DNA from: Blasia pusilla
Taxonomy: Eukaryota
Assembly: GCA_050084515.1 (NCBI GenBank)
Contig: CM114271.1
Span: forward strand, 12,276,001 to 12,340,000
Reading direction: 5' to 3'
DNA: 64,000 nt
Both the position numbers and the translations under genes were made by a program. Positions 7,761-57,400 of this stretch are shown piece by piece; position 1 is the first letter of the stretch, and each line of letters opens with the position of its first letter. The notes beneath the pieces were generated by a model that searched no databases, had not been told where the DNA came from, and saw nothing but the letters and a program-made list of their open reading frames with translations.

Positions 7761-7859
7761 AGTTTCCCTAAATAAGACTACACTCTATATCAAAATAAGT
7801 CCCAAAACCTATTCGTTTACAACCTTGAACAGATCATTTATCTTAAACCCTTCAAACCG

Positions 7860-19805: not shown

Positions 19806-19809
19806 GTCC

Positions 19810-23186: not shown

Positions 23187-24345
23187 GTTGTCAAACGTGT
23201 ACAAATCGCTACAAAATCCACATGGCTGGTCACATCTATATACCATACCACACCGATCTTCCTTACACATAGATAGATCCACACACATACAAAAATGAAC
23301 TCATGCACGTACGTCAAGATTTTAAAACTAGAGTAAAATCTGCTCACACGGCTAACTCCACTCTTGAATCTACATCGGCATATCAAGCCACATCCATCCT
23401 CTGCTATGAGGGAATTCGGACGCTAGCACCCTAGTTCCTACTATACACAAAGTAAGAGAGATGCTCCAAAGGCTTAAAATTAGAAAGATAGCTTGGAAAA
23501 GCCATCTCTCCCTCTCTCATAGCCTTGGGAAGAGCTAAACGGCTCTTCCCCCAAAAATAGCCTTCACACGGTAACTTGCGAGCATAAGTTACCGCGTTGA
23601 CTCGGTTAACGGGTCATGTGGCCAAAATAGAAAATAAGGGGAATCATTATAAAAGATATTCTTAATGCACCAAACTTATCTTCAACCTCATCCAACATCT
23701 CAAGACAAAGTTACACCTAAACCGCCCACTGACTCTCTATGACGTTGACATAGTAGAATCTATATCAATTGGCTAACTAAGATGTAATATCTGTTGTGCG
23801 CATACAAATCACTAAAAAATCCACATCGGTGGTCACATCCACACAACACCATCCTGATCTTCCTTACATGCAAGTAGATCCACATGCATACAAACATGAG
23901 CTCATGCATGTACATCGAGACAACAAAACCGCCCCCTTAGTTGGTAGTTGGATCTCCCTAACTCTAGATAGCATACATCACATCTACCTAACATGACCTA
24001 CTACCTTATACACATCTCCAACATAATAATTTTCCCATGAGAATTGCATCAAGAGATGGGGTAGGACACGACATATATCATCCCATAGAACAACCATCAC
24101 ACAACAACATAGTGGTTGCACCCCTTACAAATCCACACAAAACACATCTCAAGCCCGCAAGTACCATTTCCAAGCTTAGATCCACTATCGCGTCCATTTC
24201 TAAAAGATGACATGGTACACATTTGTGTACATGATCCTTCCAAACCATAACATTATGTCCCTCTAACATGAGGAGTGCGATCCATAATACCTTGTGCACT
24301 TGAAAAATCGTCCGCCCTACAGTAATATCTAGTGTCATGGGTGCC
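23187..24345 (-). mobile_element. PHD-gypsy 3' end: LTR (~23187-23925), PPT, 3'UTR, INT-C/PHD (24060-24345)
   Basis: ORF 24078-24338 (LLMLEGHNVMVWKDHVHKCVPCHL..LRCVLCG..MLLCDGCSMG). PPT AAGGGGGCGG on the minus strand near 23928-23938. The LTR is homologous to 54747-55224 and 41480-41806. Confidence 0.8.
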
Positions 24346-24349
24346 GCCT

Positions 24350-24529
24350 ATCATGCGCATGTACATTACTTCACAACATATACCATTGTTATTGAATACA
24401 CACATAAAACCTACCAAATACTATACTAACTAATGACATCTAAACATCGAGATGATCAAGTACCAAAATATCTCCAATAAATCAAGATCTCTCACAATTC
24501 ATACAAATATCTCCCTCTCTCCCTTTCCT

Positions 24530-24614
<85 letters not shown>

Positions 24615-26040
24615 CCAAGCCCACTCTCCTAATGAAAGACTTGGGCTACTCAAAAGGCAAGGAAGACCGTAGTTTTTCCACCTTATGCCAAGAGGTTCAA
24701 AAAAGAGAGAATAAGCTCTAAAGCTCTCTCTCCTTTGATATATCTCCTTCCCTCTCCCAAGCTCTTTCCATGATAACCTATGGAGGCTATGCTTGTAGGT
24801 CACCTCCTTGGCTCTTGTGCTGCTATAGGGGTTCAAGGGCCACTTCCCAAAGTGGAAAGTAAACTCTATTCATAATGGTATCTTACTCGAAATAGAAACT
24901 TTCTATATATAGCTCCAAATGAGCCGTAACGAAGGGAAAACCTACTCTCTCAAGTTACCTGTGTCCTCAATAAATCATCCTTGGCCTTTTAAGGTTATCC
25001 TCCAATATCCTCAAAGGTGATCAATCATAAAGTGGTTGATCCATCTTAAAAGTCTTGAGTGTTATTATATGCATACAGATCGCTACACAACATACATCGC
25101 TGCCATCAAATATACACACAAACATACAAGATACCATACTAACTCATAGCATCTAAACATCAAGACGATTGAGTACCAAAATATCTCCAATCGCCCTCCT
25201 AGTTGGGGTTTAAGTCCCTCTAATTTTAGATAGCCATCTATCCCTACCTACCATCACACTCATCTCTAGGCCCGATCGTGGCTCCATCGTTAGTCGACTT
25301 CTAGTCCATGTCACAAATACAAGTTTGAATATATGACTGCCTAGTATCTCCACTATGTACATCTAAGATACATCCACTTTCCTTGAGGAACCCTAGTGAG
25401 AGGTGGCGTCATACATTCCATGTGCCACCCTCTCAAACATCCATCATAAACTAGCCTAGTGGTTGCACCATGGGCACAACAGACACATTAAGCCTGTAGG
25501 AACTACTACTAAGCTTCCGATCAACTAGACAATCAATGTTAGGAAGGTGACATGGTGCAGAGTAACACACATGGTCCATCCAAACCATACCATCGTGCCC
25601 CTCCAATAAGAGGACACCAGATAGTAAGGCATCTCGCACTCTCAAGATGATGCACCCTTTAGTCACATCCAATATTGTAGGTGTCATCTGTTGCAAGTAG
25701 ACATAATCTCCTTGATGAAAAATCTAGATTGTTGGTCAATAACCACCTTCCTTAATATTCAAATATCTCAAAGTATCTCGAGGTTGCAAAATTTCCAAGT
25801 TCTCAAACGCCATGGACATAACCTTCCAAAATAACTCAGCCCTCTAAGAACATGCTCGCATCCATACATCAGGGTCATTAAGGTTCAACACCTCACCAAA
25901 ATCATGATGAATTGTCGTAGGTAAATCATGCTCTTGGCCATAAGGAAATAAGTACAATGAGAAAGACTTTAATTAGGGCTTGATCAAACAAGGCCTAAAA
26001 ATCCCCACAAAACTTCATCCCTTGGTGTGTCAGGACTTCG
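24350..26040 (-). mobile_element. Second PHD-gypsy 3' end: LTR (~24350-25190), PPT, PHD and integrase C-terminus (~25350-26000)
   Basis: Minus-strand translation gives ..AFENLEILQPRDTLRY..GGY..GDYVYLQQMTPTILDVTKGCIILRVR..CHL.. followed by [30 protein letters not shown]. Confidence 0.8.
24533..24610. repeat. (CT)39 microsatellite inside an LTR
   Basis: Pure CT run read directly from the sequence. Confidence 0.95.
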
Positions 26041-26043
26041 GCT

Positions 26044-26930
26044 ATCATGACCCTCATCACCAAACAACCGGCAAGCGGAACATTAGACCTCTAGCGAAAT
26101 CATGCTATGATGGTTTGCGTGTTCGAGAGGTCTCTTGGAAGAGATGTTAGCGACACAAGAGATGAGACGCAAACAAGGGTGAGCAATTTATGCGTTTATG
26201 GTCATGACTAGGAAACCTGAACAAAATTTGAATCAAGATTTTAGAGGAGTCAAGGAAGAGTGGTTGCCAAAGAGGTGAGAATTGGATTTGGAACATCACT
26301 AGCGTTTGGGGTTTGACTATATTTTGGATCATAACTTTTAGTCCCAAGATGTGTTTGGAACAAGTAAGATGGCATTGGAAAGCTTATGCAAAGTTAGTTC
26401 CAATGCACCAAAGATATTAGCAGATGCATAAGCATAGGCTAAGAAAATGCCGAGAAACAACTCTATTGGGAGTTGGGTTGAGGGCCAAAAAGAGGGGCCC
26501 TAACGTCTATTACCCAAAGATATGGGAATGGCTGAGAACCCCTTTAGTAGTAGTAAGGGGGAAGGTCTCCAAGAGTGCTTGAGACTCAAATCCTACTTTG
26601 GGATGCCACAAGGCGAACCGAGGGTACATAATGGATCGGGAGTTTGATGTTGGGAATGAAAACCCAAACCAAGTGCAATAGAGTTGATTTTGGAGGCAAC
26701 TATTGGATTCCAACCTGCTACTCATTTAGTTGGGTCATGGTTAAGGGCTCATACGAAGTCCATTGGACAGTTAAGACCGCTAGGCATGCAAACTTCATCT
26801 TAGGTGCTTGGATTATCCAAAAAGTCTATCTCAAGTCTTGAAGGATGATTGACCTAGACCACACTAACATGAGTGTGTTTGGGTGTACATCAACAATAAG
26901 AGCGATTCCTACTAAAGGTATGCTTATGCA
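26044..26930 (+). mobile_element. Old chromovirus LTR
   Basis: Begins ..CATGACCCTCATCACCAAA and aligns along its length with the reverse complement of 47308-48331. Confidence 0.75.
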
Positions 26931-27249
26931 ACATTAGAGATTGAAGTTCAAGGGAAGTAGACGCACAACATTAGCTGGTTTGTGATAATGACTCTACACT
27001 CAATCTAGGAAGGCATACGCTACTCCCTCACTTGCTTTATCAAGCAATGCAACCAACTCTATCCACTTTGAGAAATGCTCGACCATCACCAACACAAAAT
27101 GAGTATGGCACTTTGTGAAAGGTAAAGGTCCTACAAAATCCAAGCTCTATCTATAATATAAACCCATAATCGGAAATTGGTGCAACTGTGGAGTCTCAAC
27201 ATTGAATGATGCTCAGACTCAATCATATATTGTGCATCAGGAAAAAAAA

Positions 27250-28560
27250 ATTTGAACATTAGTGTGCATACCTCGCTATCATATGGAACCCAAGATGGGT
27301 TTGAGAATTTTTTGAGGAAGATGGTGGAGATAGTCAAGAATTTTGGTGAATCCTTCGAAGATGGGGAGAAAATTTGTTGGCAGACGACTTATCGGGATGC
27401 GTGGCTTGGGAGAGCAAATTTTTGCTATGGATAGAAGAAGAAAATTGTATAATATGGAATGAATCCAACTTAGAGGATAGATTGGTGAATCAATTCCTTG
27501 ACTGGATAACAAGGAAAATGTTCATTGATTGGGCTCGAGAGTGGAAACATTGGTTTGCAACCAAGAAGATGAAGGCTCTGGTTCAACCAAGTTGATTGGC
27601 CAAATATAAACGTAGAGCTAGTGAGCGAGAATACTATCCATTTCTTGGAATACATAGACAAATTAGAAGGAGTGAATATGAGCACGTATTTCATTGTTGA
27701 GGGGGTTGGAGGTGTTCTATTTAAATGCAAGTTCTTGAGGCCAAAGTTTATATAAAAAATGGAAGATTCATTCTCATATATTGCAACAGTCTTTAAGGAC
27801 CAAAGACATTGAAATAGAGACGTAGTACTAAGATTCAAGTTCAATAAATTGAAGAGGGAGATGGTTACATGGCATAGAGAGCATGCTAGAATCATTTTTC
27901 ATGTTGCTACAATTCCTATTTTGATTACAACAACTCTTGTATTCCCTCTTTGGAAAGGTAGAACTCTCCAGAAGATGTTAGAGCAGGTGGAGATGATAAT
28001 GACCTCTGGAGTTTGGCCGAATAATCCTCATTTCGAGGAATGTAAGGAGTTTATGATGAAAAGGGATGACATTGCTCTCACCATTCTTAAGAATCTTGCA
28101 TATTTCCATAATCATGGTTGGATACAAGGGTATCTTCATATGCATAATATTTTATTGCAATTTTCTGATTGGGATTCTTAGTTATTGAGTATTTCCTCTT
28201 CTGATCTTGGACACACTTTAGTGTTTGTTGGGATTATGGATCTCGAGTTTGCGCAAAAATTTTAGCAAGCATAGTTGGTTGGTTCCATTTGATATCCACA
28301 CTCCTAACCTAATCTTGATCCTTACTTAGCTCCAGAGTTAACTAAACATCATTTGATGCATCTCGCTTCAACTATATCAAAAGATCAATCGTTCATGGAG
28401 TTTTTTTTATGTTTAAAACCTTGGGTTATTCTATGGAGGGTTTTGAGGAATCTATAAAAAATTTGCATATCCCGGACTCGATAAAAAATTGGGAATTTAA
28501 GACCAATCGAGAAGTACGTAAATGGATAACAAGTTGAATTACCAGATCAAGAAGATGGTG
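27250..28560 (+). pseudogene. Degenerate intronless protein kinase
   Basis: Kinase subdomains occur in order across stops: IVEGVGGVLFKC (Gly loop), YIATVFK, LKREM, LVFPLWKGRTL (hinge), LAYFHNHGWIQGYLHMHNILL (decayed HGDLHxxN), VGIMDLEFA (DFG position), YLAPEL. Confidence 0.65.
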
Positions 28561-29399
28561 AATCCAAAAATAGGTGCTCGGGGGAAGGGGGGTGCACATG
28601 AGGGCTATACAAGTAAATACCAATATGTATAGTGCTCTAAAAGAGACCATAAAACAAATAACTATTGTGAATGGTGCTTGTTGTTTGCGCCCCATCCTAG
28701 CACCAATGTGGAGTAGATGTTAGATTGTTAACTTTGGACGAAATTTAGATATCATATTTGTGTAAATATTTATAAAGGATGCATTTTTTGAATATATCAT
28801 GTTATTAGATTGAATGTGTGTTTTTTGTGTGTATGAGATTACAAGTTAAATGAGTTCTTTAATTGGAAAGAAATTTTTTTCTTTTGGAGCTTGACCAAGA
28901 TATAAGTCATGTTCTATCCGAGTTGTGGATCCATTCATAAGTATAATCCCAAAAAGAAATAAAAACTATGTTGAAGCAAAACTTATAGTATTCGATGGTT
29001 AGAATCAAAGTTTCATTATCGATCATGCATTTGATAGCTCCATTTTGTGTTATTTGCAAGAACCAAACATTTCTTTATTGTCCTCACATATGGATTCAAG
29101 AAATATTCCCACAAGAGAGGAAGAAGATACTATAGTGGTTTCTTTGGATTCCAAGTAGGGAGGATGGATAATCCCATAACCAAGCCATCAATCATTGTTG
29201 ATAAGTCGCCACCTCAAGCATGGGCTCATGGTCTAGGATTGGAGGTTTTCATGGAGATAATTGTGGATTTAGGGTCATCCACTAAAATCCAGACCTCTTC
29301 ACTAGTAGCAAGTGATGAGACCTGATCATTAATGTAGTGGGACTATCACCCTTTGTTCCAGAGATTTGAAACTATTTTTCCACAACTCCATGGGACAAA

Positions 29400-30780: not shown

Positions 30781-31279
30781 TTTTGAGAAGATAAATTACT
30801 TACTTTTGTGGAAAGATAGTTTTACTTTATTTGCATTGTATTCAACAATGAAAGATTGAAGAAGACAATTTTTCAATTATTTCCTCAAAGGATGAGAATG
30901 TTTGTAGTTTTTATTATTTAGTTTCCACCTTCATAGTAATGGATATTTTAATTTCCATAGGAGAAAAGAACTGAAAACTATTTAGTTTTTCTCCGAATTA
31001 TCAAAAAAATCAAATGATTGAGGTTTTCTTTTAATTATGTTTGTAAGACTAGAACATAAGAATTTTTGGGTGTCATTATGTGAGGCGTCACCCTGAAAGA
31101 TTCACTCCTCAATTAGTACTCTGGATTTAAAATTATCAATGTTATTTTTTATATTATTTTATTCAATTTATACAGTAAGTGTGCCTCGTGAAAAGTATAT
31201 ATATCTATTTAAAGAACAATAATGTTTTCTTTTATGATGCTTAGTCTAGGAATTATTTGTATCTTTCAATGTCAAATCT

Positions 31280-33254: not shown

Positions 33255-33865
33255 GATCAACGAGATCTAGTAGAACACCTTCGAGAGAAGCGGAGGACAG
33301 CTTTAAGAGGTCAAGGATGACCTTCTAAGACCACGGGTAACTTGAGAGAGTAGGTTTTCCCTTCACTTTGGCTCATTTGGAGCCATACAGAGAAATTTAC
33401 TATTTCGGGTGAATTATCGTTTTGAGTAGAGAATTGGATTTCCACGTTAGGAAGTGGCCCTTGACCCCTTGCATCATGTCAAGAGCCAAAGAGGTGACAT
33501 AGGAGCATAAGTTACTGTATAGAGAGCTTGGGAGATGAAAGCGGATGTAGCCAAGGAGAGAGAGCTTTGGAGCTCATTCTCTCTTTATTGAACCTTTTGG
33601 CATGAGGCGGCAGAGCTATGGTCGTCCTTGCCATGTGAGTAACCAAAGCCTCTAATTGGGATAGTGGATTTGGTTTGACATGAGATAGATAGATTTGTGT
33701 GTACTATGGAGAGACATTGTTGTGAGAGAGAACTTTGATTTATTGGAGATATTTTTACATCCAATCATCTCGATGTTTAGATGCCATGAGTTGCATGGGT
33801 TCTTATGTGTTGTGTGTGTCTTTGATGATAGCGATATATGTTATGTATTAATGTGTATGCGGACA
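33255..33865 (+). mobile_element. Partial/solo LTR of the PHD-gypsy family
   Basis: Reverse complement of 24350-25040 (e.g. GGTAACTTGAGAGAGTAGGTTTTCCCTTC); ends GTGTATGCGGACA. Confidence 0.8.
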
Positions 33866-38470: not shown

Positions 38471-38479
38471 CAATGGAAT

Positions 38480-41479: not shown

Positions 41480-44400
41480 TAGGTTACTAGATGGCCCTTA
41501 AACCGAACAACTGGTAACATGGCTACCAAAGACCAAAATAGGGAAATTTCAAAAACTATATTTCCAACGCAATAGAATGTGTCTCTGAACTCATGCAACA
41601 TCTCAGGACAAAGTTACATCCAAAAAACCCTCTAACCCTCTAGGTGTCGGCTAACTAAGATGAAACCATTATCTTACACATACACTTTGCTACATAATCC
41701 ACATCGTCGGTCGTATCTACAAACCACACAACATCAATCTTCCCAACACATGGGTTGATCCACTAATAAACAGAATATACTCACACATATACATCAAAAT
41801 TGCACAACCGCCCCCCTAGCTAGCAGTTGGGTCTCCCTAACTCCAAATAGCATACATCACATCTACTTGACATGATCTACTACTTTATACACATCTAGCA
41901 CCGTCGATTTTGTCATCCCTACATCTCCCAACACATGCTTGTCTGCGGATCCATCTTATCTATCTCCATCTAGAGATATCGATGTATCTAGATGTCATCC
42001 TACAACTCTACAGCATTGCAGCTACCCACCGTGTTGATTCCTCCAAAGAGATCTTATACTCTTGCACCCACACAATAGGTGTGATATCTGAAGATATCAA
42101 GTCTCCACACCAAGAGCACAATTGTGAATTGCCTTTGTATGCTCTAAGACATAGCACAACTCCATGCCTACATCACAAGCTTCTCTACATTCCTCTACAA
42201 CTAAACCCTTGTACCCAACAACGATAAAGAGGTCTTTGGACCATAAGAAGAGACATTCATCCTTGCATGTCTCTCCGTGGGACTATTTGCTACGGGGATG
42301 TCCTCGGCATATACGTCCTCTCCAAAAACTTTCCTGGTCAACTAAGATCACATGTAAATGCTGCCAACATGGTTACTGTATCGTCACGTGCTGGACCCGA
42401 GCCAATAAGAAACCGTCTCCTCCAAGAAATCAAGAATGAAACCAAAGGGGCATAACACCATACTCCCTACCAACACATCATATGACTCTATCGGTGTCGT
42501 AATTTCCCGAGTGTGTAGCATGGCACTTTTTGACTAAATTTTTGTGTCATACACCGACTCTTCTTGAACGTCAATCTCAAGTATTGCTAAAGTGCATGTT
42601 CAGTAAGACACACCCAAAATACTTATCTACATCCAAAAACACTCACATTAGTCTAGTCTGGGTCAATAAGCCTTCAAACTCCACGAGTTTTCAACTCAAG
42701 CCATTCATCAAGCTCAATCCTCCTAACACCTCACTTCCTAACACTATCAAGTCTTCCTAAACTTGAGGCAGACTTAATGGTTAGTCTCGACAGCTAAAAC
42801 AATGCTTGTATGCCTAGCAGTCCAAATTGTCTAATGGACCTCACATGAGTCCCTAACCAAGACCCAACAAATGAGTCACGGGTTGGAATCCAAGAAGGAC
42901 CTCTAGAATCCACTCACTTGGACTTGGCTTGGTATTTTCATCCTAATGCCAACCTCCCAATCCATTCTATGTCTTTTGTTTGCCCTGTGGCTCCCCAAAG
43001 TGGAGTTCATGTCCCAAGCACCCTTGGAGACCCTCCCTCTTATATTTACTTAAAGGATTCTCCACTAGAGTTCTCCTATTCCACCTTGGTGCATGTTTGG
43101 CTATGAAGGTCACGACACTTTGGCTAGAGTTTAACAACTAACTCCTGTCAAGTCATGTACTGCATTGGTGACATGCTCCCAATATAGGCATGTATTTGAA
43201 AAGGACAAGGCTGAATGTTCCCTTTTTGTAACCCCAATGCCAAGCATATTGCCTTCCCTTACATCAAGGGTTGCGCGCCTAAATAATGTAGAATGCATTG
43301 TGGGTGGTACACCGTACATGTGGGACTAACCAAGGGGAACACTCGTGCTTAATTATCCAAAAATACCACATGTGGTGTCACCATGGCTTGTTCTATGGCT
43401 AGGCGAGGTGACATATCCACCAACTTTTCCGCTTCAGCCTACCATGAATGAGTGGGGAATATCACAAGCACATGCTCCAAGGGCAGGTCCACTTGACGCC
43501 ACCACCTTCTCAACAACCACCTCCAAACAAGAGGCAATTACCTCTCCACGCTCACACATTGTGGCGTCGAGGCAGAACACCTCCATTGGTCCAACTTCCA
43601 TCGTCACTGACTCCATAGCTGAAACAACATAGCCTCCCTCACCCTAGTGGCCACCTCCAACAACATGATCGACATTGGCTCCACTCGAGCCGACGTAGGA
43701 GTTGTCTCTCCAACTCCTCATGACGTTGATGCACTTGCCTCACGTGTGAGCATAATTGGTTGTCTAGGCACCATCGAGGGTATGTGAAGTGTCTCTCACA
43801 ACATAAAAAAATGGAGAACCGTGTCTTATCACCCAGAAATTCTCTCCTTGGTAGCTTGGTCAGTCTCGTAGCAAGTCACCACCATAGCAGCGTCTACCTA
43901 AGTTGCCCACATAAACCTCAAACCTGTATAATCCTTTCCTGTATCTTGGACATGACATGGAGGTTGGAGCCACAATAACTACTCTCGGATCCTTGCTTGT
44001 CACTAGCTGCATCATTGTCATGACAACAATCATGTGCTCCTACTCATTGATGGAAGTGAAGAGCGCTAAATTTGGGGCACTTCCTCCATACGCTCTGACT
44101 AGTGGTGGAACCTTGCCGCCACAATCGTCAACTCCTCAATCTTCACCAACTCTATGACCCCTAGACCCTTGGCCTACCTCGACACATGGCTCTTGGCAAA
44201 GATCAAAACACCTATCCCTACTATGACCATATCAATGAAAATGCTCACATTGCAACTAGGTGGAGCCATCCTAGCAATCAAAGGCGCCCTTGGCCTTCTA
44301 CCATGTTGTGGGTAGTTCCTCTGCCTATGGAGCCCACCACACATCCAACAGGACATGGCGGATCCTTGTTGGGAAACATATGCTGATATAGGTCCTTGAC

Positions 44401-46790
44401 TCATGGGCTCACAATACCCGCCTTGCTCTCTAGGCACACTAGTCCACTCCTGAGGTACTAGTGCATGCTAGCGCATCTATGGGGATACTTGTAGACCCGC
44501 CCACTCCGATGAAAATCTTGTGGTGACCCTATGCTCCTTACTCATGTTGAGCTCAACGTGGTCAAACCACCTTCAATGTGGGCTTCATTGTCTCAAGCAA
44601 CATCGTATTTTGGACTCTCCACTGTATCTCCTGGCCCAAAACTCCATACCAATACTGCACTAACTGCGCCTTAGTCACTCCATATGTCACAATGATCAGT
44701 CAACGTATACGCGTGAATACCTCTTAGAGTCTCACCCGATCTTCATTGAACACACGCCTTGGTAGGTCCTCCCCAATTGTCAAAGAACTCCATTGTGGGA
44801 CTGAAATTGGGTGGTGCTCTAGCACAAGAGGTCTTTGCCACCTCATCGTCCTCATTGCCATAATCTCCATCTAGTCCCTAAGTTGATGGTATACGCCTCT
44901 CTCCTTTCACTATCCCATTATATGCCTCATGACCCTAGAGCTCAAGACATCCTCAAGGCGCTAATCTCTCTCGAGTGTAAAGACTGACACTCCATGTAAT
45001 CATCTATCGACGGACCCTCTAAGTGATGGAAAAAACCCTTCCACGCCATAAAAGGGTTGAACCGCACAAGGGATTATGTCTCTTGGAAGTTACATAATGT
45101 GTCAAACTCTTGGATGTAGTCATCTAAGTCTATGGTGCCTAACGCACCCAAGAAATGATGCATGCCTTGATGGCTCATGTTGTCCATCTCCCTCCATGTG
45201 ACATTGACACCGTCTGCGATCTTGTCATCAGACCCGATGTCCAATGATGAGGATATAGCCACCGATGGAAGTCAAGGTAGCTCCTCACTCAAAACCCCTT
45301 AGTATCTCACTCCACTCGGTATCACTCCACTACCACTATTTGAACTACCCCGTTCTTCCGAACCCCAGAAGAACATCGTGATGACAACCTTGTGTCACAT
45401 GCACAAGCCCTCAGACTCACCAAGAGTCTTCCACACTCCTCGCTAGCTCACCTACCCTAATGATACTCCCGTGATGACACGTTTGGCCTCACCTACACTC
45501 AAAAATTGACCTAACACTCTCTCGAGTCATACAGGCGACCTATACGCAGGAAATCGCCCTATATCCACAAATATGCTACACATGGAAGGAGTCTACTCTC
45601 ATCACCATTGTTACACCCATCTAGGCTAAGCTAAAACCCAATACCAAACACCCTCAATGATGCGGGACACATATGGGGAAAGGGACTTAAATGGATAACC
45701 TGAATGCGCACGCCATCACCCTAGTTCACGGTCAACAATGACAACTCTATGTGGTGCGGCAACCTCCATGGCACAACATCTCCTTGAACAACGCCTTGAA
45801 CCTTCCGTCAACGTATGCGGACTACCTATTAGCATCGACGCATTTGTCTCCATCACTAATACCCCATCGCAAATCCTCGGTGCAGATCATCCATCTCAAC
45901 ACCCGACTTTGCATGGTGCTAGTAGGTCAACTCTATGTCAACGATTCAAAGTGGCTTGTAAAACAACCCACTAATCACAATCCTACCCAAAAACACAAGT
46001 CGCAAAAATATCTCCTACTATCCAAAAAATTGCAACTCCCACCAACCATGTAGCTCTCCAATCACCAACTACTTCTGATCTAACCTACCAAGTCCAATGC
46101 CTAACTACACCATCCACTCAACCTCGTAGGGGCATACCATGGTTAGCCTGCTTACTATGTCCATCATTCCAACCTTGTAGCATGTCTCTACTCTGTCCCA
46201 CCTACGCCACACTACCCTAGCTACTGCTCAAGTTCAGGCCCCTGAATGTCCATCCTAACCCACTTGACATGCAACCCTATGCAACTTTGATACACCTCCT
46301 TCTTGAACTCAGGCACGTGTCCCTATGGACACAACTTCATCGGTGACTCCTTCTCTTCCTGGCTTCATGTAACTAAAACTTGGCCGCATGGTGCCTTACG
46401 CAAAAAACCCTCACTATGTTAACTCCTTTCCTTTCGCCCATATGTGCTCTCATCCAAGCCCCGTCTTTCTCTTGCTATGTGTGGTGCCCTATGCATTGCT
46501 AGCTCCCCTCACATTTAATGAGAGCACACAACTCCCTATGAGCTCACGTCCCTTTAGCTTCCTACCCATCACGCATCCAACTTTACTTTTTCACCCCCTC
46601 TAACTCCACTCTCAACTTCTCCTCCTCCATCTTGCCCACACTCTTTCCTATGCACTCCCCCAACCATGCTTTGACGCTCTTAGTCTTGTTCGGCTCTCAC
46701 CTCTTTCCTTGCTTATTCCCTCCAAACTTAGCCTCTACGGCCTACTCCACCATTCTTCTCTCAAACACGATCTTCTCCCAAAAGAGGTAA
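41480..46790 (-). mobile_element. Internally deleted gypsy (PHD/DNMT family): 5' leader, gag, protease, DNMT motif I, 3'UTR, PPT, LTR (41480-41806)
   Basis: gag N-terminus HHFLGALGTIDLDDYIQEFD (ORF 45074-45262) and knuckle CWMCGGLHRQRNYP. Protease homologous to 55607-56095. ARV*DLFGGINT at ~42030-42065. PPT AGGGGGGCGG at ~41808-41817. Confidence 0.8.
42545..43117 (-). mobile_element. Internally deleted chromovirus solo LTR inserted in the protease region
   Basis: TG...CA ends homologous to 47308-48331, with near-TSD TTTTG/CTTTG. The flanking protease sequence is colinear with the uninterrupted copy at ~55850-55910. Confidence 0.8.
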
Positions 46791-47302
46791 GAACCGGATT
46801 TGGAACGTGACTAGAATTTGGGGTTTTGACTATATTTGGAATCCGGATTTTTGGCGTTGGGATTCGACACCCAAACCAAGTCCAATAGAGTGGATTTCAG
46901 AGGTCCCTATTGGTTTCCAACCCGCAAAATATTAAGTTGGATCTCGGTTTGGGGCTTGTGTGAGGTCCATTAGACAGTTGGGACCGCTAAGCGCGCAAAC
47001 GCCATTTTAGGTGCCTGGACTATCCAAAAATTTTGTCCCAAGTCTCCCAAGACTAGCCCGTGTTGGGAAGCTAGGAATTAGGGAATGTTGAGTTTAAAGA
47101 AATGTCGAGTTGAGAACTTGGTGGGTTGGAAGGTCGATTGATAGAGATCAGAATAACATGAGTGTGCTTGGGTGTAGATCGACAATAAGAGCGTGTCTTA
47201 CTGAACATACGCGTCCAAAACACTAAAGATTGACATTCAATAGGAGTAGGCGCATGCCACATGGTATTAGAGCTAATCCTTGGTGAGCAAGAACTTGAGG
47301 TC
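46790..47302 (+). mobile_element. Old chromovirus 5' LTR end (to 47259), PBS (TGGTATTAGAGC 47262-47273) and leader; leader continues at 54671-54746
   Basis: Homologous to the LTR end, PBS and leader of the young element but on the opposite strand; interrupted at the GTAGG target. Confidence 0.8.
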
Positions 47303-47307
47303 GTAGG

Positions 47308-48331
47308 TGTCGTGCGCATACTCTCCTTGAACGTTAATCTTGTTTGTTGCAGAAGCGTGCGTTCAGTAGGTCACGCTCTCAACGCTGATCTGCATCCAAA
47401 CACGCACTTTGGTTAGTCGGGTCTTGGATCAATCAGCGGGATTACTTTCCGATTTCTCGTCTCGGACTCTCTCTTCAAGCTCAACCTTCCTAGTTTCGCG
47501 GTTTCCAACACGGGCAAGTCTCGAAAGACTTGGGACAGACTTTCTGGTCGGTTCAGGAACCTGAAACGACGTTTCGCGCCTAGCGGTTCCAACAGTCCGA
47601 TGAACATCCAATGAGTTCCTCACCAAGACTCGCACGAAGTGAATCTCGGGTTGGAATCCAAGTGTGGCGTACAAAGTCCACTCCCTTGGATCAGGTTTGG
47701 GTTTCGGGTTTCCGCGCCAAACTCCCGTTTCATCCCATGCCTCTGAAACGCCGTTTGGCGCCCAAAGTGGGTTTCGTTTCCGAGACATCTCAGAGAAGGT
47801 ACTCCCCTTACTAGTACTTCTGGGGATCTCCGGGGCCCCCTACATTTAGGAAAGACACCGGGCCCCTCATTGGCCCTCAACCCGATTGCTCTCTGAATCG
47901 TTTTCGGCCAATATCTCAGCCTGTACTTATGCGTTTGCTGAGATCTTTCGTGCGTTGGAAGCGTCTTGAGATCAGCTTTCCAACGCGCCCTTATTTGTCC
48001 CGAACGCATCTCGGAGCTCAACGTTATGGTCCTAAACACAGTCAGATTCTCCCAAACGCTAGTCATGTTCCAAACTGGTTCTCACCTCTTTGGCAACCAA
48101 CCTCCAAGACTCAACTCATCTCAAGTCTCGGCTCGCGTTTGGTCTAGGTTTCTGGTCGCGACCACTAATGCATGAAACGCACAACTCTGTTCGCGTTTCG
48201 TCTCTTAGACTTTTCCAAGAGACTCTACCAAACGCCTCTCCAAAGCGCAAACCTCGCGGCGTGAGTTCCTTTGAGTTCTGATGTTTCGCTTGGCTCGTAT
48301 TTGGTGTTATTTGGTTATGAGGGTCGCGACA
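47308..48331 (-). repeat. 3' LTR (1024 bp)
   Basis: Direct repeat of 53637-54665; PPT AGGAGGGGTGAG on the minus strand at 48332-48343. Confidence 0.95.
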
Positions 48332-49014
48332 CTCACCCCTCCTTAGAAGGTTGATGTCCTCATCAACGCAAACCTTATTGATGTTAAGTTCTGGGAAGCC
48401 GACCCCTTAACACGTAATCGCGTTCGGTAGCTAACCCGCAATTCCTCTTTTTGGCTTAAGTCTTAGGTTTGTCGCTAAAAAGACTTAGACTTATTAGCTT
48501 ACGCTACGATGAGTCGGACTAGTTACGCCAAACTAATCTAACTATCAAAATAAGCTCACTAAGTCGCAACCTAACACTTCACTCACTATTTGTAAACAAC
48601 ACTTTGTCTACCTAGCCAACTCACTACTTTTGGGTCACTGTATTCCACCTAGGCGCGTCACTAAGTTCAGTCATGAAACATGAATGAGATCACCACAAAC
48701 CCAAAGACTCATCCGCCTCGCCGACGTTAGGGCGAGCCCAAATGCTAGTACTTCAACACTTGGTCCTGATCTAGATGCCTTATCTGAATACAAGCTCTCA
48801 CCTCAAATACTCATTGTTTGGTCTCCTTGACTTACATCCTAAGCATATGAAGAACTACTCATTGCCTTGCACAAACCAAACTCAAAATTACAATACAAGC
48901 ATCGAATCTCCAAATCCATGTCTTCTTTATTGCAACAACTAAACCTTTCTAGTTACAACGGGTTATCGGCCCAAGCTTTCCGGTCACAAGTTATGTCCAT
49001 TGCTTCACCATGTA

Positions 49015-52000
49015 CTAACGCACGTGCTTTTCTTGCATCCATCTGAAGTCACGCAATGCTTTTTGCGCATGTTCTAGATCCGCCTCTGCAATCCAAGTCG
49101 CCTCTTTCACATGATAGCCTTTCCACTTGACCAAGTACTCGTTTTGGTGGCCCCTACGTCTGGAACGCGAGAATAGTCTCAACCTCGAACTCTGGTTCCT
49201 CATTTTCGATGACCGGTTGTGGTCTCAACATCCTCCTTCGCCCGGACGCACATTGTCTTGAAGATACTTCTTCAATAATGACACATGGAAAGTCGGGTGA
49301 ATCTTGAACTCGTTTTGGCGGCTCCAACGTGTACACATCCTCAAACGGCCTTGCCTTGATCACATACGGTCCAAAGATACTTGGTGACAATTTCATGAAA
49401 ATTCTTTCGGAAGACCGAGATTCTTAACACTCAACCACACTTGTTCCCCAACTTGAAACTCACATGGCGCCGACTTTTGTTAGCATGCTTTACGTACCTT
49501 AGTTGAGCCTTGGCGAGACTTTCTCTCGCTTCGCTCTTGTCGTTCTGCATTTCCACTAACAAACATTCCGCCGTTGCTTGACGAGTGTGTGTCGATGTAT
49601 TGCCCTTCGGAAGAGCTAAGTCAAGAGGCCCTTACGGTTCTCTTTGATACGCCGGAAGAAACGGAGATTCTCCGATTGCGAGAATGCTTAGTCGAGTTGT
49701 AACAATACTCAGCCATACTTAACCACTTGGCCCAATCTCTTTGGTCCGCACTCACGTAATTCCGTAAGTATTGGTTTACGACCGAGTTTACTTTTCCGTT
49801 TGCCCATCCGTTTGAGGATGGAAGGCCGTACTAAAGCTGAGTTTGGTCGGAACCTCTGAATAGATGTTTCCAAAGGCACTTTGGTAAACTTCGGATCCCG
49901 ATTGGACACAATGCTCCTAGGCAATCCGTGCGCACGCCACCAACCATCCAGGAATAGTCGGAAGTCGCGAGGTCGTCGCGAGACTCTCTCGTCGGCACAA
50001 ACCTCCCCAACTTGCTAAACCGATCAACTATCACAAGTATAGCGTTGTATCCCTCGGATTCTGGAAGACTCGTAATGAAATCCATGCTAATGCTTTGCAA
50101 GGGTCCCTCCGGATTGGCAAAGGATGAAGTAAACCTTGTTTCTTCGCATAAGACATGCGGTTCGGCGCGGAGTCACGCATGTTTTCACATATTGAGCAAC
50201 ATCTTCCTTCATGTTGGGCGGAAGAACCTCTTAGACAAAACAGCAAGAGTGGATTTCTCCCTTTGTGTCCCGCCAAAGGTCCATCATGACATTCCACAAA
50301 CACCTTGGTCCGTAGCTTGCCTTGGCCTACATAGATCTGCTCTGCTTAAACTTCAGCAAGCCGTGTCTCAAACTCAGATTGGCCACCTTTCGCCCCGCTT
50401 TAACTTCCCAAGGTACTCCTCGCTTGCTCATCCTTCATGTATCCTTCACGAATCCTTCTTTCCAGTCTGTTTCATTAGGGAACATTGCTCTCAACACTTG
50501 TGTAAATCGATGGCATATGTTCATCCTGCGACTTAACGATCCGGAATGACATTGTCTTTCCCGGCTTGTGGATTAGCTCCACATTCATCAACGCCAAGGT
50601 ATCATGCCACCGGTTGTTTTGGCCACGCGATCCTGGGTCTCAAAATACTTGAGCGATATGTTATCGGTGAATACTCGAGTCTGTGAAGTCCGAAATAGTG
50701 ACGCCACTTCCTCAAGCAATGAACCACCGCAAACAACTCTTTCTCATGAGTAGGCCATCTCTTTCGGTGTCGGTCGCTTCTTGCTTTCGTGATGCTCTGG
50801 TCTCCTTTTTGCACCAACATTCCCTGCAATCGCGAAATCACTAGCATCCGTGTGCACCTAACAGCTTGTTCAAACTCCGGCGATTTGAAGCGGTTTCTGA
50901 GAGGATCTCTTTGACTCGATTGAACGCTGTATCCACTTCCTCGGTCCATGTAGTATTGGCAAACTTTGCGGTCCAATCCGTGAGAGGTTTCACTATGCCC
51001 GAAAAATTCTTCACGTATGTCCGTAAAACTCGACTCCGATGAACCTTCTCATCCCTTCACCGTGGAAGGCGGTTCCCATTCGCAATCGCGCTCACCTTTT
51101 CCATGTCCTGGACTCACTCCATCCAGACTGACCACATGTCCCAAGAACTTGATCTTCGTCAAACCGAACTCACTCTTATCCGCATTCGCATACGACTTGT
51201 TAGCCTAAGTTTCTCAAACACCGTCTTCAAATGTCGGCGTGCTCCTCTAGTGTTTTCGAATAGATGAGTATGTCATCTATATAGATGATCACAAACTCAT
51301 CCGTCTCCTTGTGAAAGATGGAGTTCATCAAAGTGGTAAACGTCGGAGGCGCATTACAAAGACCGAAGGCATTACTACAAACTCGAACGAACCGTATCTC
51401 GCCCTCAGCGAGTCTTCTCTACATCCGCCGGCAATCCGAATCTGATAATATCCTGATTTCAGGTCAATCCGGCTGAAATACTTGGCACCGACAATCGATC
51501 AAAGAGGTCATCCATCCTCGGTAGAGAGATAGTTATTCCTTACCGTCACTTTATTCAGCGCCCGATAATCAACACGAGTCTCAACTTCCCATCCTTCTTC
51601 TTGACAAAGAGGACGGGCGCCCCATAAGGTGACTTGCTCGTTCGGATGTAACCCCTCTCTAGGAGTTCACCCAACTGTTTCTTCAACTCAGCAAGTTCCT
51701 CTTGATTCAACCTATATGGTGCCTTTGAAGGTGGTTGAGATCCTGGTATCACCTCAATCTTATGATCAACCGCCCTATGTGGTGGCAACTCGTCGGAAGC
51801 TCCTTAGTCAACACATCTTCAAATTCTTTCACAACTCTCTTGAGTGTTTTGGGATCTCCTTGAAGCTGAGTTCTGATCTTTGCATCTTGCGCTTGCATCA
51901 TCCTCTACTCGTCTCATCAAGCAAAGGAATCCTTCCTCTAACTCGCCAAACTCGTCCTCGTGATGGCGTTCACCAACTCCGTCTTTCTAGGCACCTCACG

Positions 52001-53484
52001 AACCAATCGGCGTCCGTCCGTTTGCCGTTAACCAAGACGCTTAACCTCAAAGGTCTCCGCCTCAGTTCCACCTCATACGCATCCAAGAACGTGTTCCCCA
52101 AGACTCGTCGATACCGTCCATCTCGCAAATCAGAAAATTCTCCTTCAACTCAAATACTCCGCATCTCACAACTAGCCCTAAAACCAGATCGATGTCCGGT
52201 GGGATTTTCCTCCCGCGAATCCTACCTAATGGGTTCATCCGCTTTGGTGGTTGGCAATCCCAACGTTTTTACGATTCTCGGACTCAAGAATGAGTGCGAA
52301 GCACTGTATCAACGAGCAACATCACATCGCGATTAGCGATCTTGGATCCTAGGTAAACCAAATTGGGCGCCCTCTTGGTGACTGTAGAGATGTATCTAGA
52401 TCTCCCTCCGATAAATGCTTAGCGGCAAACGCAATCATACTTGGTTTACTAACCTTGGGCCTCACACATTCCTTAGCCATATGCCCGGGTTCGCCACAAT
52501 TATAACAAATCACTTTGGCATTCGTTGACTTAGAACGGCGGCCCCTTCGGCCAGCGTTGAGTTCCACTCGTTTAGCTTTGGGCTGGGAGAGACCCTCCAT
52601 GGTCACGCTCACCCCATTCCAAACCCTCTTGGATGTCCCTTTATTCTTTCGTAATTTAGAAAAACTTTTTGTCTCAAAGGGTTTGGGTGTTGGACTTCAT
52701 TGTCCCCAATCCGCTCGGCTAGTCTCAAGAGGTCCGCGACACGTCTGGGATGTGAGGCATACGAAAGAGAGCCTTTCGGCACTCGGTTTGAGCCCACTTA
52801 GGAAGATCACCTTTTAGTATGTTCATCCGTGGAAAGTACACTCATGAGCGCACTAAACTCTCGCACATAAGCGCCAAGTGATCCACTCTGGCGCAACCTC
52901 ACCACCTCCATGCCATCGCGGTACTCTGATATTCCGGAGTGAATCGGTTCCCAATCAACTCCTTGAAATCTTCCCAACTCAACGTTTTCCCCGACCTAGA
53001 TGTTCTTTCCGGTGAGCCGTCCACCAATGGAGAGCGTGATCCTTGAAACGTGACCGCTCTGATCACCTTGTCTTGTTTATATCGCTTTTGCGCTTCGAAA
53101 TAGAGTTCGAGTTCCGTTAGAAACTCGCTCACTTTCCGAGAACGCCCCATTCTGTGAATGGCGTTGGCAAATTAGTCTTACAAAGCTTCTTGCGTAACTA
53201 GAGGCTCCATTTGACTTGAATTCCGAGATCACCTTGCTCTGTTCAGCCATCTGGTCCGCCATCACCTTCATCAATCCCATCATTTGGGTATAAAAGGCCG
53301 GATCGTGTAAGTTTGGACCCGAAGGTCCCGCGGAAAGATTTTCGGTTGGAACATCCTCATGTCTGTGACTCGGCACTTCGGGAGTCGCAAATTCCACCTC
53401 CGGCTCTCGGTCCGTCATTGATTCGTCTCTTGGCTTCTTTGCTTTGACTCGCGGTTTCCTCGGTTCTTCGCCCTTGGTCGCCAT
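49015..53484 (-). pseudogene. gag-pol polyprotein (frameshifted): gag, CCHC knuckle, protease, RT, RNase H, integrase, chromodomain
   Basis: [47 protein letters not shown] at ~51265-51290; [53 protein letters not shown]. Confidence 0.93.
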
Positions 53485-53622
53485 TTGCGAGTCGTCGCCT
53501 TTTCTCAGATCTCCTCCTCGCCTCTTGCGTTCCTCCTCGGCGTCGCGGTCTTCCGGCTACCTTGAGTTCTCCCCAAACGCCCAGATCTTCAACGACCCCA
53601 AGTTCACGCTCATCAAGGAATT

Positions 53623-53634
53623 GCTCTGATACCA
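53623..53634 (-). promoter_or_regulatory. Primer-binding site complementary to tRNA-iMet
   Basis: TGGTATCAGAGC on the minus strand, 2 nt from the 5' LTR. Confidence 0.95.
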
Positions 53635-53636
53635 CG

Positions 53637-54665
53637 TGTCGTGCGCCTACTCTCCTTGAACGTTAATCTTGTTTGTTGCGGAAGCGTGCGTTCAGTAGGT
53701 CACGCTCTCAACGCTGATCTGCATCCAAACACGCACTTCGGTTAGTCGGGTCTTGGATCAATCAGCGGGATTACTTTCCGAGTTCTCGTCTCGGACTCTC
53801 TCTTCAAGCTCAACCTTCCTAGTTTCGCGGTTTCAACACGGGCAAGTCTCAAAGACTTGGGACAGACTTTCTGGTCGGTTCGGGAACACAAACGGCGTTT
53901 CACGCCTAGCGGTTCCAAATCGTCCGATGAACATCCAATGAGTTCCTCACCAAGACTCGCACGAAGTGAATCTGGTTGGAATCCAAGTGTGGCGTACAAA
54001 GTCCACTCCCTTGGATCAGGTTTGGGTTTCGGGTTTCCGCGCCAAACTCCCGTTTCATCCCGTGCCTTTGAAACGCCGTTTGGCGCCCAAAGTGGGGTTT
54101 CGTTTCCCGAGACATCTCAGAGAAGGTACTCCCCTTACTAGTACTTCTGGGGATCTCCGGGGGCCCCCTACATTTAGGGAAAGACACCCGGGCCCCTCCA
54201 ATTGGCCCTCAACCCGATTGCTCTCTGAATCATTTTCGGCCAATATCTCAGCCTGTACTTATGCGTTTGCTGAGATCTTTCGTGCGTTGGAAGCGTCTTG
54301 AGATCAGCTTTCCAACGCGCCCTTATTTGTCCCGAACGCATCTCGGAGCTCAACGTTATGGTCCTAAACACAGTCAGATTCTCCCAAACGCTAGTCATGT
54401 TCCAAACTGGTTCTCACCTCTTTGGCAACCAACCTCCAAGACTCAACTCATCTCAAGTCTCGGCTCGCGTTTGGTCTAGGTTTCCTGGTCGCGACCACTA
54501 ACGCATGAAACGCACAACTCTGTTCCGCGTTTCGTCTCTTAGACTTTTCCAAGAGACTCTACCAAACGCCTCTCCAAAGCGCAAACCTCGCGGCGTGAGT
54601 TCCTTTGAGTTCTGATGTTTCGCTTGGCTCGTATTTGGTGTTATTTGGTTATGAGGGTCGTGACA
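53637..54665 (-). repeat. 5' LTR (1029 bp)
   Basis: Direct repeat of 47308-48331. Confidence 0.95.
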
Positions 54666-54746
54666 GTAGGAGCAACTAGACGCTTGGGGAGAATTCAAGA
54701 TAGTAGTGAGACCTAGACCCTCATGGAAGGACGCAAAAGACAAAGA

Positions 54747-57400
54747 TGTCGTGCGCATACACATCGCTACAAAACCCACATCGTTGGTCACATCTACACA
54801 CCATACAACACCGATCTTCCCCAATATATGGGTAGATCCACAAAAATACCCCTCCTAACGATAACCTGCGTGCACAGGTTACGGAGTGATCGTTGACTCA
54901 GTCAATGGGTCACTTGATGGACTAAAACCAAAATAGAGAAATTTCCATAATCGACGTTCCCAACACAATAGACCTCGCGCCAACCTCATTCGACATCTCG
55001 GGACAAAGTTACACCCAAACAGCCGGCTGCCTCACTATGCCGTCGACGCGATAGAACTGTGCCTACGTCAAAATAAGATGTGACAACTGTTGTGCGCATA
55101 CACATTGCTACACAACCCACATTGCTGATCACATCTACACACCACACAACACCGATCTTTCCCAACATACGGGTAGATCCACACATAACCAAACAAACTC
55201 ACGCATACACACTGGGATCCCACAACCGTCCCCTTAGTTGGAAATTGGGTCCCCTTAACTCCTGATAGCACACACATATATACCCGAAAAGATCTCCTAT
55301 CCTACACACATTTAGCACCATCGGTGTTATCATCCCTGCAACATTGCCACACTGTAGCAACCCGCAGTGTTGATCCCTCCAAAGAGATCTAACACTCTTG
55401 TACCCTGCTCCAAACATAGACACGGCTCCATGCCTGCCTCATGAGCTTGTCTGCACTCCACACATCTCAACGCTTGTCCCCAACAACAATAAAGAAGCTC
55501 TCCACCATGGGAAGAGACACCCACCCTGACATTTCTCTCCGTACGTGGGACTATCCGCTACCGGAATGTCCTCCGCATGTTTGCTCCTTTCCTTGAACCC
55601 TCCTGATCATTGAACATCACCTGTGAATACTGCCAACGTGGTCACCGTATCCTCACGCAGTTGACCACCACTAACTCCCACAAATTGCATTGGTAGGTGG
55701 CTCACCCGTCCATCACCTAATCGCCACCCTGGCCAATAAGAAATCATCTCCTCCCAAAAATCCAGAATGAAACCTAGAGGGTACAACACCGTACTCCCTA
55801 CCAACACATCATATGACTCTTCCGATGTCGTAATTGCCCGAGTGTGCACCATTGCACTATCCGACTCATGCTCTGGTTGGAGTCTAACCACCAATTCCTG
55901 TCGAGTCATGAATTGCGTGGGTGATACGCCCCCAATAGCGGTATGTATTTGAAAGGAACAACGCTTGATGTCGCCTTTCCGTAATCCCAACGCCAAACAC
56001 GCCGTCTTTCCTAACATCAAGGGCTGCACTCCCGAATCAAGTAGGACGCGTTGCTGGTGGTACACCATACCTGTGGGACTAACCAAGCCAAACACTCATG
56101 CTTGGTTATCCAACAACACAACACTTGGTGTGATCATGGCTCGCTCAATGGCCGGTCGAGCTGGCATGTCTACCAACTTTTCCGCCGCCGCATGCCATGA
56201 CTTAGTGGGGGACGTCTCGAGCTCCTGCTCCGAGGGCAAGTCAACCACCTCCTCAACTACCTCTGAACGAGAGGCAGTCACCTCTCCATGCTCACATGAT
56301 GTGGTGGCCAACCGGAACACCTCCGCTGGTCCAACTCCTAACGTCGCCAAATCCATGGCGGAAAAAAATGGAGCGTGGCTCACCCTAGTGGCCATCTCCA
56401 ACAACATGGTCGACAGTGGATCCTCCCGAGCCGACATAAGAGTCATCTCTCCAACTCCTCGTAACTTCGACGCACTTATCCCACCTGTGGGTACTACCGG
56501 TCATCGAGACACCAACGACGGTGTATGTAGTGCCTCCGACAATGTGAACGACTAGGGAAACATGGCTTGCCGCCCATCGATCCCCTCCTCTGGGTCAATC
56601 TCAACCCCACCTCTCGATGGGTTGATTACTCTCGCAGCACCCGGAGTCACCACCGCAGTAGCCTCAACCTGAACCGCACTACACATAAATCCCATCCCTG
56701 CAGAATCCTCACTAGCATCGTGGTATGATGTGGAGGCTGGCGCCACACTAGCTACTCTTAGCTCTGGGCCTGCCTCTAGTTGTATCATCATCATGGCAGC
56801 AATCCTCTGCTCCAACTGATTGATGCGCATAAGGAGCGTTGCATCGGATGCATGTCCTCCATCTCCCGTGATTGGTGATGGCACTCTACCACCACAATCA
56901 TCTACCACTTGATCTGCACCAACTCTCCCGCCCCCAAGTCCTCTGCCTACCTTAGGACGTACCTCCCACCAAAGATCATAACACCTATCCCTAGTGTGAC
57001 CATATTGATGACAATGATCACATTGCAACTATGGTGGGGCCATCCTAGGTGGCTCCTGAATACTCAGAGGCATCCTAGGCCCTCTACCATGTTGTGGGCA
57101 GTCCCTCTGCCTATGTGACCCACCACACTTCCAACAAGCCAACCTTGGTCCCTGCTGGGAAACATATGTCGGTGTGGGCCGTTGCCTCATCATTTCACGA
57201 TACCCGCCTTGCTCTCTGGGCCCACCGGCCCGCTCTCGTGGTACTACTGCATGTTGGGGTACCTGTGGGTCAACTCTTACTCGTCGACCCGTTGTATCCC
57301 GCAAAAATCCGGTAGTGACCACCTGCTCCTCACTCATGTTGAGCTCTATCTGCTGAGACCACTTGAAGACCACCTTCAATGTGGGCTTCGTAGTGAGACG
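54747..57400 (-). mobile_element. Internally deleted gypsy (PHD/DNMT family): gag (two CCHC), protease, DNMT motif I, PPT, LTR (54747-55224)
   Basis: ORFs 57029-57493, 56552-57028, 56096-56446 and 55607-56095 lie in one frame split by stops: CWKCGGSHRQRDC, CDHCHQYGHTRDRC, VLLDSGVQPLMLG. After a frameshift comes TRVLDLFGGINT (~55365-55400). Confidence 0.85.

Follow-up and report, generated by a model that had tools for sequence, protein, structure and literature searches.

Decayed retrotransposon fragments in Blasia pusilla point to a Ty3/gypsy family whose relatives join a DNMT3-like methyltransferase to an integrase-borne PHD finger

A stretch of 64,000 nucleotides from Blasia pusilla (contig CM114271.1, positions 12,276,001 to 12,340,000; hereafter the window) contains two sorts of retrotransposon remnant, integrase fragments that end in a PHD finger and gag-protease fragments that end in the first codons of a DNA methyltransferase (DNMT) domain. 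The question raised by this locus is whether the two are pieces of a single family. The original prediction held that they are, and that the ancestral element had the order gag-PR-DNMT-(RT-RH)-INT-PHD, with protease (PR), reverse transcriptase (RT), RNase H (RH) and integrase (INT). The likely answer is that at least five decayed minus-strand fragments, termed copies A, B, C, 2 and 3, belong to one Ty3/gypsy family of the Gypsy-DNMT3 kind, whose autonomous ancestor would have encoded gag, PR, a DNMT3-like domain, RT, RH, INT and PHD in one polyprotein. Copies A, 2 and 3 keep the 3′ end of pol, and A and 2 additionally keep the 3′ untranslated region (3′UTR), the polypurine tract (PPT) and a terminal repeat. 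Copies B and C keep gag, protease and the first DNMT3-type codons, and then jump to the last codons of the open reading frame (ORF), the 3′UTR, the PPT and the terminal repeat. All of the copies in the window are dead, with stops, frameshifts, lost zinc ligands and inserted foreign long terminal repeat (LTR) fragments. They differ by 25-30%, and a dN/dS ratio computed from them would mainly reflect neutral decay since insertion.

The two sorts of fragment are connected by the 3′ end of copies A, B and C, which consists of the following parts.

23929-24005, minus strand: copy A 3′UTR and PPT AAGGGGGCGG (PPT at 23929-23938), 84.8% identical to B and 71.1% to C
23320-23925, minus strand: copy A terminal repeat, TG... 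directly after the PPT, homologous to the B and C repeats by sequence comparison
23176-23319, minus strand: second LTR-start segment of copy A, 605 base pairs (bp) after the first (23920-23783 matches 23319-23176, 77% over 144 bp, expectation value (E) 4e-26)
41808-41887, minus strand: copy B stop codon (41885-41887), 3′UTR and PPT AGGGGGGCGG (PPT at 41808-41817), from the global alignment
41529-41808, minus strand: copy B terminal repeat, truncated, recognised by homology to the A and C repeats
55225-55320, minus strand: copy C 3′UTR and PPT AAGGGGACGG (PPT at 55225-55234), from the global alignment
54747-55224, minus strand: copy C terminal repeat, with the start segment present twice (55183-55088 and 54842-54747; 341 bp apart, 90% identical)

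The minus-strand 3′UTR/PPT blocks were compared by global alignment, with significance taken from 500 mononucleotide shuffles per pair. Copies A (23930-24020) and B (41810-41900) are identical in 78 of 92 aligned columns (84.8%), A and C (55225-55320) in 69 of 97 (71.1%) and B and C in 68 of 97 (70.1%). The observed score was reached by none of the 500 shuffles in any of the three pairs. The A and B blocks are thus homologous, although their description as nearly identical was an overstatement, and the proposed similarity of C to both was borne out. In all three copies the PPT is followed by a repeat that starts with TG; in copy 2 the PPT is followed by TTGG.... The terminal repeats align between A and B (24017-23771 with 41896-41649, 73.5% over 253 bp), A and C (24015-23549 with 55311-54838, 70.7% over 482 bp) and B and C (41900-41529 with 55317-54924, 69.3% over 397 bp). 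At 69-74% over 250-480 bp, these values agree with the earlier claim that the LTRs are homologous. The copy C repeat is cut or abutted by a young chromovirus at 54665.

The onset of the stretch shared by A, B and C lies within the ORF, at the final three codons and stop of copy A (RCV-stop; stop at 24006-24008). The last codons read C-W-R-C-V-stop in A, G-A-R-C-V-stop in B and G-A-K-C-V-stop in C. The cysteine in the terminal RCV-stop of copy A is the last zinc-ligand cysteine of its PHD finger.

There are three PHD copies in the window, each with the finger behind an integrase C-terminal tail. Their parts, together with the 3′ end of copy 2, are as follows.

19511-19864, minus strand: copy 3 integrase C-terminal tail and PHD (Pfam PHD 34.9 bits; tblastn to P0002, 68.7% over 99 amino acids)
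24009-24344, minus strand: copy A integrase C-terminal tail and PHD (PHD at 24012-24146, stop at 24006-24008; tblastn to P0002, 55% over 112 amino acids)
25356-25972, minus strand: copy 2 integrase C-terminal part (25508-25972) and PHD (25356-25487) (tblastn to P0002, 60% over 155 amino acids, E 1e-57)
26964-27272, minus strand: copy 2 integrase zinc-finger (H2C2) end and start of the catalytic core (tblastn to P0003 residues 338-440, 62%, E 7e-33)
25192-25355, minus strand: copy 2 3′UTR and PPT AGGAGGGCGA
24369-25191, minus strand: copy 2 terminal repeat, with the start segment present twice (25191-25083 and 24478-24369; 712 bp apart)

The Pfam cut-off for PHD (PF00628) is 24 bits, and it is exceeded by copy A (24.7 bits, E 2.4e-5, 24012-24146, minus strand) and by copy 3 (34.9 bits), which confirms the finger as real. 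All three fingers are decayed, each lacking one or two ligands of the Cys4-His-Cys3 zinc-binding signature. That of copy A has an in-frame stop and a replaced zinc-ligand histidine. Copy 3 sits within an open stop-to-stop frame of 163 codons (19442-19933, translated as P0001), has lost the zinc-ligand histidine and the last cysteine by replacement, and has no recognisable 3′UTR or terminal repeat. Copy 2 contains frameshifts, and two zinc-ligand cysteines of its PHD are replaced. A foreign LTR fragment (26042-26965) separates the two parts of its integrase, and on the upstream side the copy breaks off at 27272.

When longer proteins were searched with P0001, six of 509 candidates were hits. 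All six carry PF00628 and four carry the integrase core family rve; the hits with names come from Marchantia, Sphagnum and Calypogeia, and P0003 additionally has RNase H and Integrase_H2C2. The INT-PHD fragments of the window are 50-69% identical to these six proteins. The PHD fingers of relatives are intact (33.7-42.7 bits by Pfam).

The second sort of fragment is represented by copies B and C.

42396-45187, minus strand: copy B gag (from P0008 residue 1) and protease, in pieces (tblastn to P0008 residues 1-742)
41955-42053, minus strand: copy B DNMT3-type stub from motif I (DLFGGINT) to a YVEKD-like motif, 33 codons broken by in-frame stops (48% identical to the P0013 DNMT N-terminus over 33 amino acids, tblastn)
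55559-57430, minus strand: copy C gag (CCHC knuckle) and protease, 5′-truncated, starting at P0008 residue 200 (tblastn)
55366-55407, minus strand: copy C stub of 14 codons with DNMT3-type motif I, QGTRVLDLFGGINT (64-71% identical to P0008/P0019 over 14 amino acids, tblastn)

Copy C matches residues 200-799 of the Marchantia protein P0008 with 40.5% identity over 654 amino acids (tblastn, E 2.8e-112). The gag-PR region of copy B is interrupted by a foreign LTR fragment at about 42528-43084. The stubs reach no further than codon 14 (C) or codon 33 (B) of the DNMT domain, and that of copy B passes directly into the 3′ end of the element. Within it, DLFGGINT...HRYL-stop-MEIDK aligns with DLFGGIST...RRYLYVEKDE at 16 of 33 positions. 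In P0008 the motif LDLFGGISTG stands at the start of a domain recognised by Pfam as DNA_methylase (35.6 bits, cut-off 22), and DNMT3A aligns across the same motif region. The Marchantia gene model P0006 carries LQDLFGGISTGLAAVLESGILVRRYLYVEKDE behind its protease tail. The stub is not significant alone, so the reality of the DNMT motif rests on its collinearity with the gag-PR match to proteins of the P0008 type. The DNMT motif that had been reported for these copies is therefore present and in the expected order, but only as a stub.

Copies B and C have a common junction between stub and 3′ end, with 88 of 107 ungapped columns identical. A further 75 nucleotides or so are missing from C; in B these sit between two short direct repeats and encode the RYL.YVE.D part. 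The shared junction implies that both are copies of one internally deleted, non-autonomous derivative. Neither further parts of the DNMT domain (including the catalytic core) nor an RT or RNase H belonging to this family were found in the window. The Ty3/gypsy pol is represented there only by gag-PR in B and C and by integrase fragments, of which copy 2 provides the H2C2 end and the start of the core. In B and C, the sequence preceding the shared RCV-stop aligns too weakly with a PHD 3′ end for a remnant to be recognised there. The DLFGGINT motif was also considered as the decayed C-terminal half of a PHD finger, for which the cysteine-to-cysteine spacing fitted. This was rejected, as P0006 and P0008 show the motif after the protease, where it starts a DNMT3-type domain.

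The two domains are united in relatives of the family. P0028 is an open polyprotein of 2358 amino acids with the Pfam order PR-DNMT-RT-RH-INT-PHD: an Asp protease (663-711), DNA_methylase (953-1137, 32.5 bits), RVT_1 (1443-1596), RNase H (1660-1789), Integrase_H2C2 and rve (1925-2090) and PHD (2300-2344). It is 49% identical over 726 amino acids to P0003, which resembles the window fragments. P0015 (PR-DNMT-RT-RH) overlaps P0003 (RH-INT-PHD) with E 2e-93. The Sphagnum protein P0019 matches both the gag-PR of copy C (E 4e-63) and the integrase of copy 2 (68.7%), and P0006 holds PR, DNMT, INT and PHD pieces in a single gene model. The methylase family PF00145 scores above its cut-off in P0008, P0015, P0028 and L003, the last being one of three loci (L001-L003) found when metagenome contigs were scanned with P0028. 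In L003 the PR, DNMT (29.5 bits), RT, RH, H2C2, rve and PHD lie collinearly on one strand, with the PHD at 19.3 bits, below the cut-off. L003 has no frame of at least 200 codons, so this locus is decayed too. The three loci have no DNA-level similarity to the window and, on that comparison, are distant members of the family rather than copies from the same species. The Ty3/gypsy order RVT_1, RT_RNaseH, Integrase_H2C2, rve is present in P0028 and L003, and RT_RNaseH, Integrase_H2C2, rve in P0003.

The N-terminal part of P0006 matched 26 of 3312 candidates; PF00145 was flagged in 21, and PF00145 occurs together with PF00628 in three (P0028, P0030 and P0033). With the DNMT region of P0028 as query, 99 proteins of 1296-4127 amino acids were retrieved among 2474 candidates. 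PF00628 is present in 65 of these by hand count and in 66 by a PHD regular expression, and the named proteins are from Haematococcus, Monoraphidium and Closterium. The predicted order of domains is thus supported by the open P0028 and, in decayed form, by L003. The original prediction called for a copy with both domains in one ORF between matching LTRs. Such an ORF was found in the relative P0028; none was found in the window, and no element bounded by matching LTRs was recovered.

Of the solved relatives, DNMT3A and DNMT3B align best with the P0008 DNMT domain (E 2e-11), whereas DRM2 reaches 0.013 and M.HhaI 0.017, and by this measure the DNMT of the relatives is DNMT3-like. For the wider comparison 115 proteins were matched and one was dropped for incomplete coverage, leaving 114 aligned domains. 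These conserve motif I LF.G, the catalytic GW(P/E)CQ, ENV and HR.R..W.N. The catalytic motif reads GWECQ in most members, whereas the Marchantia copies have GWPCQ. In a midpoint-rooted FastTree tree of the 114 domains, the PR-DNMT-RT arrangement falls in one clade of 38 tips (support 0.80), where Marchantia, Sphagnum and Closterium are represented. Beyond this clade, 76 tips have the RT-RH-DNMT-INT-PHD arrangement. The DNMT is therefore found at two sites in pol, in the PR/RT interval in the streptophyte-type clade and in the RNase H/integrase interval in most others, including the named chlorophytes. One or more relocations of the domain inside pol may underlie this, and such a history would speak for its having been kept by long-term selection.

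Several points weigh against a common ancestor with both domains. No copy in the window has them together, and all three INT-PHD fragments end before RNase H, so that their own DNMT status is not visible. A matching 5′ terminal repeat was not found for the window copies; sensitive blastn gave none for B (45150-46900) or for L003, and thus no complete element is bounded in the window. The DNMT stub by itself is not significant (tblastn E 0.17-0.85, window-wide), and Pfam reports no family, DNA_methylase included, in the three read-through frames of 41800-47300. The gene models P0004 and P0006 span degenerate elements. Within the PR-DNMT-RT clade, five long integrase-bearing polyproteins (P0027, P0044, P0047, P0054 and P0057) show no PHD, from which it follows that the pairing of DNMT and PHD is not obligatory.

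Some of these points would suit a history of two sister subfamilies, in which, in this genome, the B/C type never had a PHD, the A type never had a DNMT, and the shared 3′UTR and LTR arose by recombination or template switching between co-packaged RNAs. The variable presence of PHD in the clade and the separation of the domains in the window speak for it, as does the absence of a convincing alignment of A with B or C upstream of the final three codons. The shared stretch, however, already starts within the coding sequence, at the closing R/K-C-V-stop, and in A this contains the last zinc-ligand cysteine of the PHD; single bryophyte proteins (P0019 and P0006) span both types of fragment, and the full combination is present in P0028 and L003. 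Two separate subfamilies are accordingly considered unlikely. The insignificant stub and the silence of Pfam DNA_methylase are what would be expected if DLFGGINT were a chance motif and B and C ordinary gag-PR remnants with no methyltransferase history. Against this, the motif occurs at the expected spot downstream of the highly significant gag-PR match, the same motif starts a Pfam-significant DNMT in the matched proteins, the similarity of copy B extends through ..RYL.YVE.D, and DNMT3A aligns across the motif; coincidence is thus very improbable. That the pieces stem from host genes (for a DNMT3 or a PHD protein) and are no part of a mobile element has the least to recommend it and is hardly credible. 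Some relatives are labelled merely ‘PHD-type domain’ or ‘DNA (cytosine-5-)’ hypothetical proteins, but in two copies the PHD lies directly between an integrase tail and a 3′UTR, PPT and terminal repeat, the DNMT stub is directly behind gag-PR, and the pieces are present as multiple decayed copies.

If the fragments do derive from one family with both domains, the function of the pairing can be considered. The PHD is nearest by sequence to the fingers of CHD4, KMT2C, PHF12, KDM5A/B PHD1, DPF3, PHF21A (BHC80-type), ATXR5, UHRF1 and AIRE. These fingers are mostly readers of the unmodified H3 N-terminus, and those of CHD4, KDM5 PHD1, BHC80 and AIRE belong to the class that reads unmodified H3K4. 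As a lead, the PHD of the element may be of this class. In the position that the chromodomain has in chromoviruses, it would anchor the integrase to nucleosomes in a given state of the H3 tail, probably unmodified H3K4. The DNMT3-like domain would be released by the protease and could methylate the new complementary DNA (cDNA) or the insertion. The non-autonomous B/C type would have been mobilised in trans. A broader and tentative proposal, which is judged possible rather than probable, is that an old Ty3/gypsy lineage across liverworts, mosses, charophytes and chlorophytes pairs an integrase PHD that reads H3K4-unmethylated tails with its own DNMT3-type writer. Such a self-contained ‘choose and mark’ module might target silent chromatin for insertion and then methylate the copy just inserted, a functional analogue of ADD-DNMT3.

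Elements of this kind have been described. KnitGypsy-Dnmt3 of the charophyte Klebsormidium nitens was reported by de Mendoza et al. in 2018 (PMC5890265) as a Ty3/gypsy LTR element whose Pol polyprotein includes a non-rearranged methyltransferase of DNMT3 type with conserved key residues, as in relatives of the family described here. In that paper, de novo CG methylation by retrotransposon DNMTs was shown, and action on the new cDNA or insertion was proposed. Publication of DNMT3-bearing Gypsy elements makes the idea less new than the original prediction held. The acquisition is described there as having occurred ‘in the K. nitens lineage’; in contrast, the relatives found here come from liverworts, mosses, Closterium and chlorophytes, and mostly have an integrase PHD. 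The main text of PMC5890265 contains neither ‘PHD’ nor ‘Marchantia’, although the K. nitens element may still have a PHD in Fig. 4c or the supplements.

Other systems join readers and writers in different ways. Chromoviruses likewise have a histone-tail reader fused at the integrase C-terminus, in the same position, but this is a chromodomain instead of a PHD finger, and they are not known to carry a methyltransferase. The REXdb article (PMC6317226), in the portion available, mentions neither PHD nor methyltransferase lineages. For the ‘Chlamyvir’ clade a PHD was considered and rejected, as the papers describe a chromodomain. Retrotransposon PHD fingers are widespread according to PMC6673714. 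The EpiLTRs of Cymbomonas and Euglena (bioRxiv 10.64898/2026.05.21.726589) are also single LTR retrotransposons that join DNA methyltransferases to a chromatin reader; they carry DAM, a DNMT4-related DNMT and a chromodomain, whereas the element considered here has a DNMT3-like domain and a PHD. The streptophyte Gypsy-DNMT3 is called a distinct acquisition in the same preprint. Animal DNMT3 (ADD and methyltransferase) similarly pairs a DNMT3-type catalytic domain with a PHD-type zinc finger; by its sequence neighbours, the finger of the element is a putative member of the unmodified-H3K4 class. The PHD of the element is a single canonical finger and not an ADD. The two domains are about 1200 residues apart across RT-RH-INT and presumably separated by the protease, which makes an allosteric coupling of the ADD type unlikely.

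The Gypsy-DNMT3 kind of element is therefore already known, and the PHD pairing and the land-plant-type relatives are possibly unreported parts. No text on a DNMT3 and PHD pairing or on bryophyte members was found in the literature consulted, although a PHD might be drawn in Fig. 4c of PMC5890265. DNMT-carrying retrotransposons have so far been reported for one charophyte and for dinoflagellates, and were read as lineage-specific captures. The relatives suggest a wider picture, in which the streptophyte type also occurs in land plants (named: Marchantia and Sphagnum), the sister arrangement is common in green algae, and most members additionally carry an integrase-borne histone reader. If this is true, model bryophytes with published methylomes and histone maps would be suited to asking whether the writer and reader of an element steer its insertion and self-silencing. 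The window itself is ordinary and consists of dead fragments within a transposon nest.

A feature common to the terminal repeats of the family is the duplication of their start. The segment directly after the PPT (110-185 bp) recurs 341-712 bp downstream, 77-90% identical, at all five 3′ ends that could be assessed. These are 23176-23920 (copy A), 24369-25191 (copy 2) and 54747-55183 (copy C) in the window, together with 3014-3678 in L001 and 10279-10994 in L003. The duplicated segment could represent the 3′ half of a DIRS-like split-direct-repeat arrangement, or alternatively an LTR with repeated ends. The former fits KnitGypsy-Dnmt3, the repeats of which are DIRS-like according to the Fig. 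4c legend of PMC5890265. Neither B nor L003 yielded a corresponding 5′ part. The copy 2 terminal repeat also contains a (GA)n microsatellite of about 90 bp at 24530-24610. An inverted repeat of the copy 2 type lies on the plus strand at 33273-33861 (75-79% identical to 24596-25191), which indicates at least one further remnant of the family in the opposite orientation.

The young chromovirus is located on the minus strand at 47307-54665, directly below the 3′ repeat of copy C. Its LTRs are about 1030 bp long and 97% identical (47307-48331 and 53636-54665), and it encodes a CCHC knuckle, RT, RNase H and a chromodomain. Older LTR fragments related to it occur at 26042-26965, 42543-42956 and 46817-47304, and an integrase fragment at 57397-58100. 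The observed/expected CpG ratio is 0.32-0.70 in the old fragments of the DNMT/PHD family (19442-27272, 41529-45187 and 54747-57430), with an excess of TpG and CpA, and 1.04 in the young chromovirus, which is not depleted. The depletion of the old copies fits long-term cytosine methylation and deamination. Tandem-repeat arrays are present at 1-800, 2860-4170, 7840-8360 and 8500-8970, with units of about 150, 270-630, 7-21 and about 100 bp.

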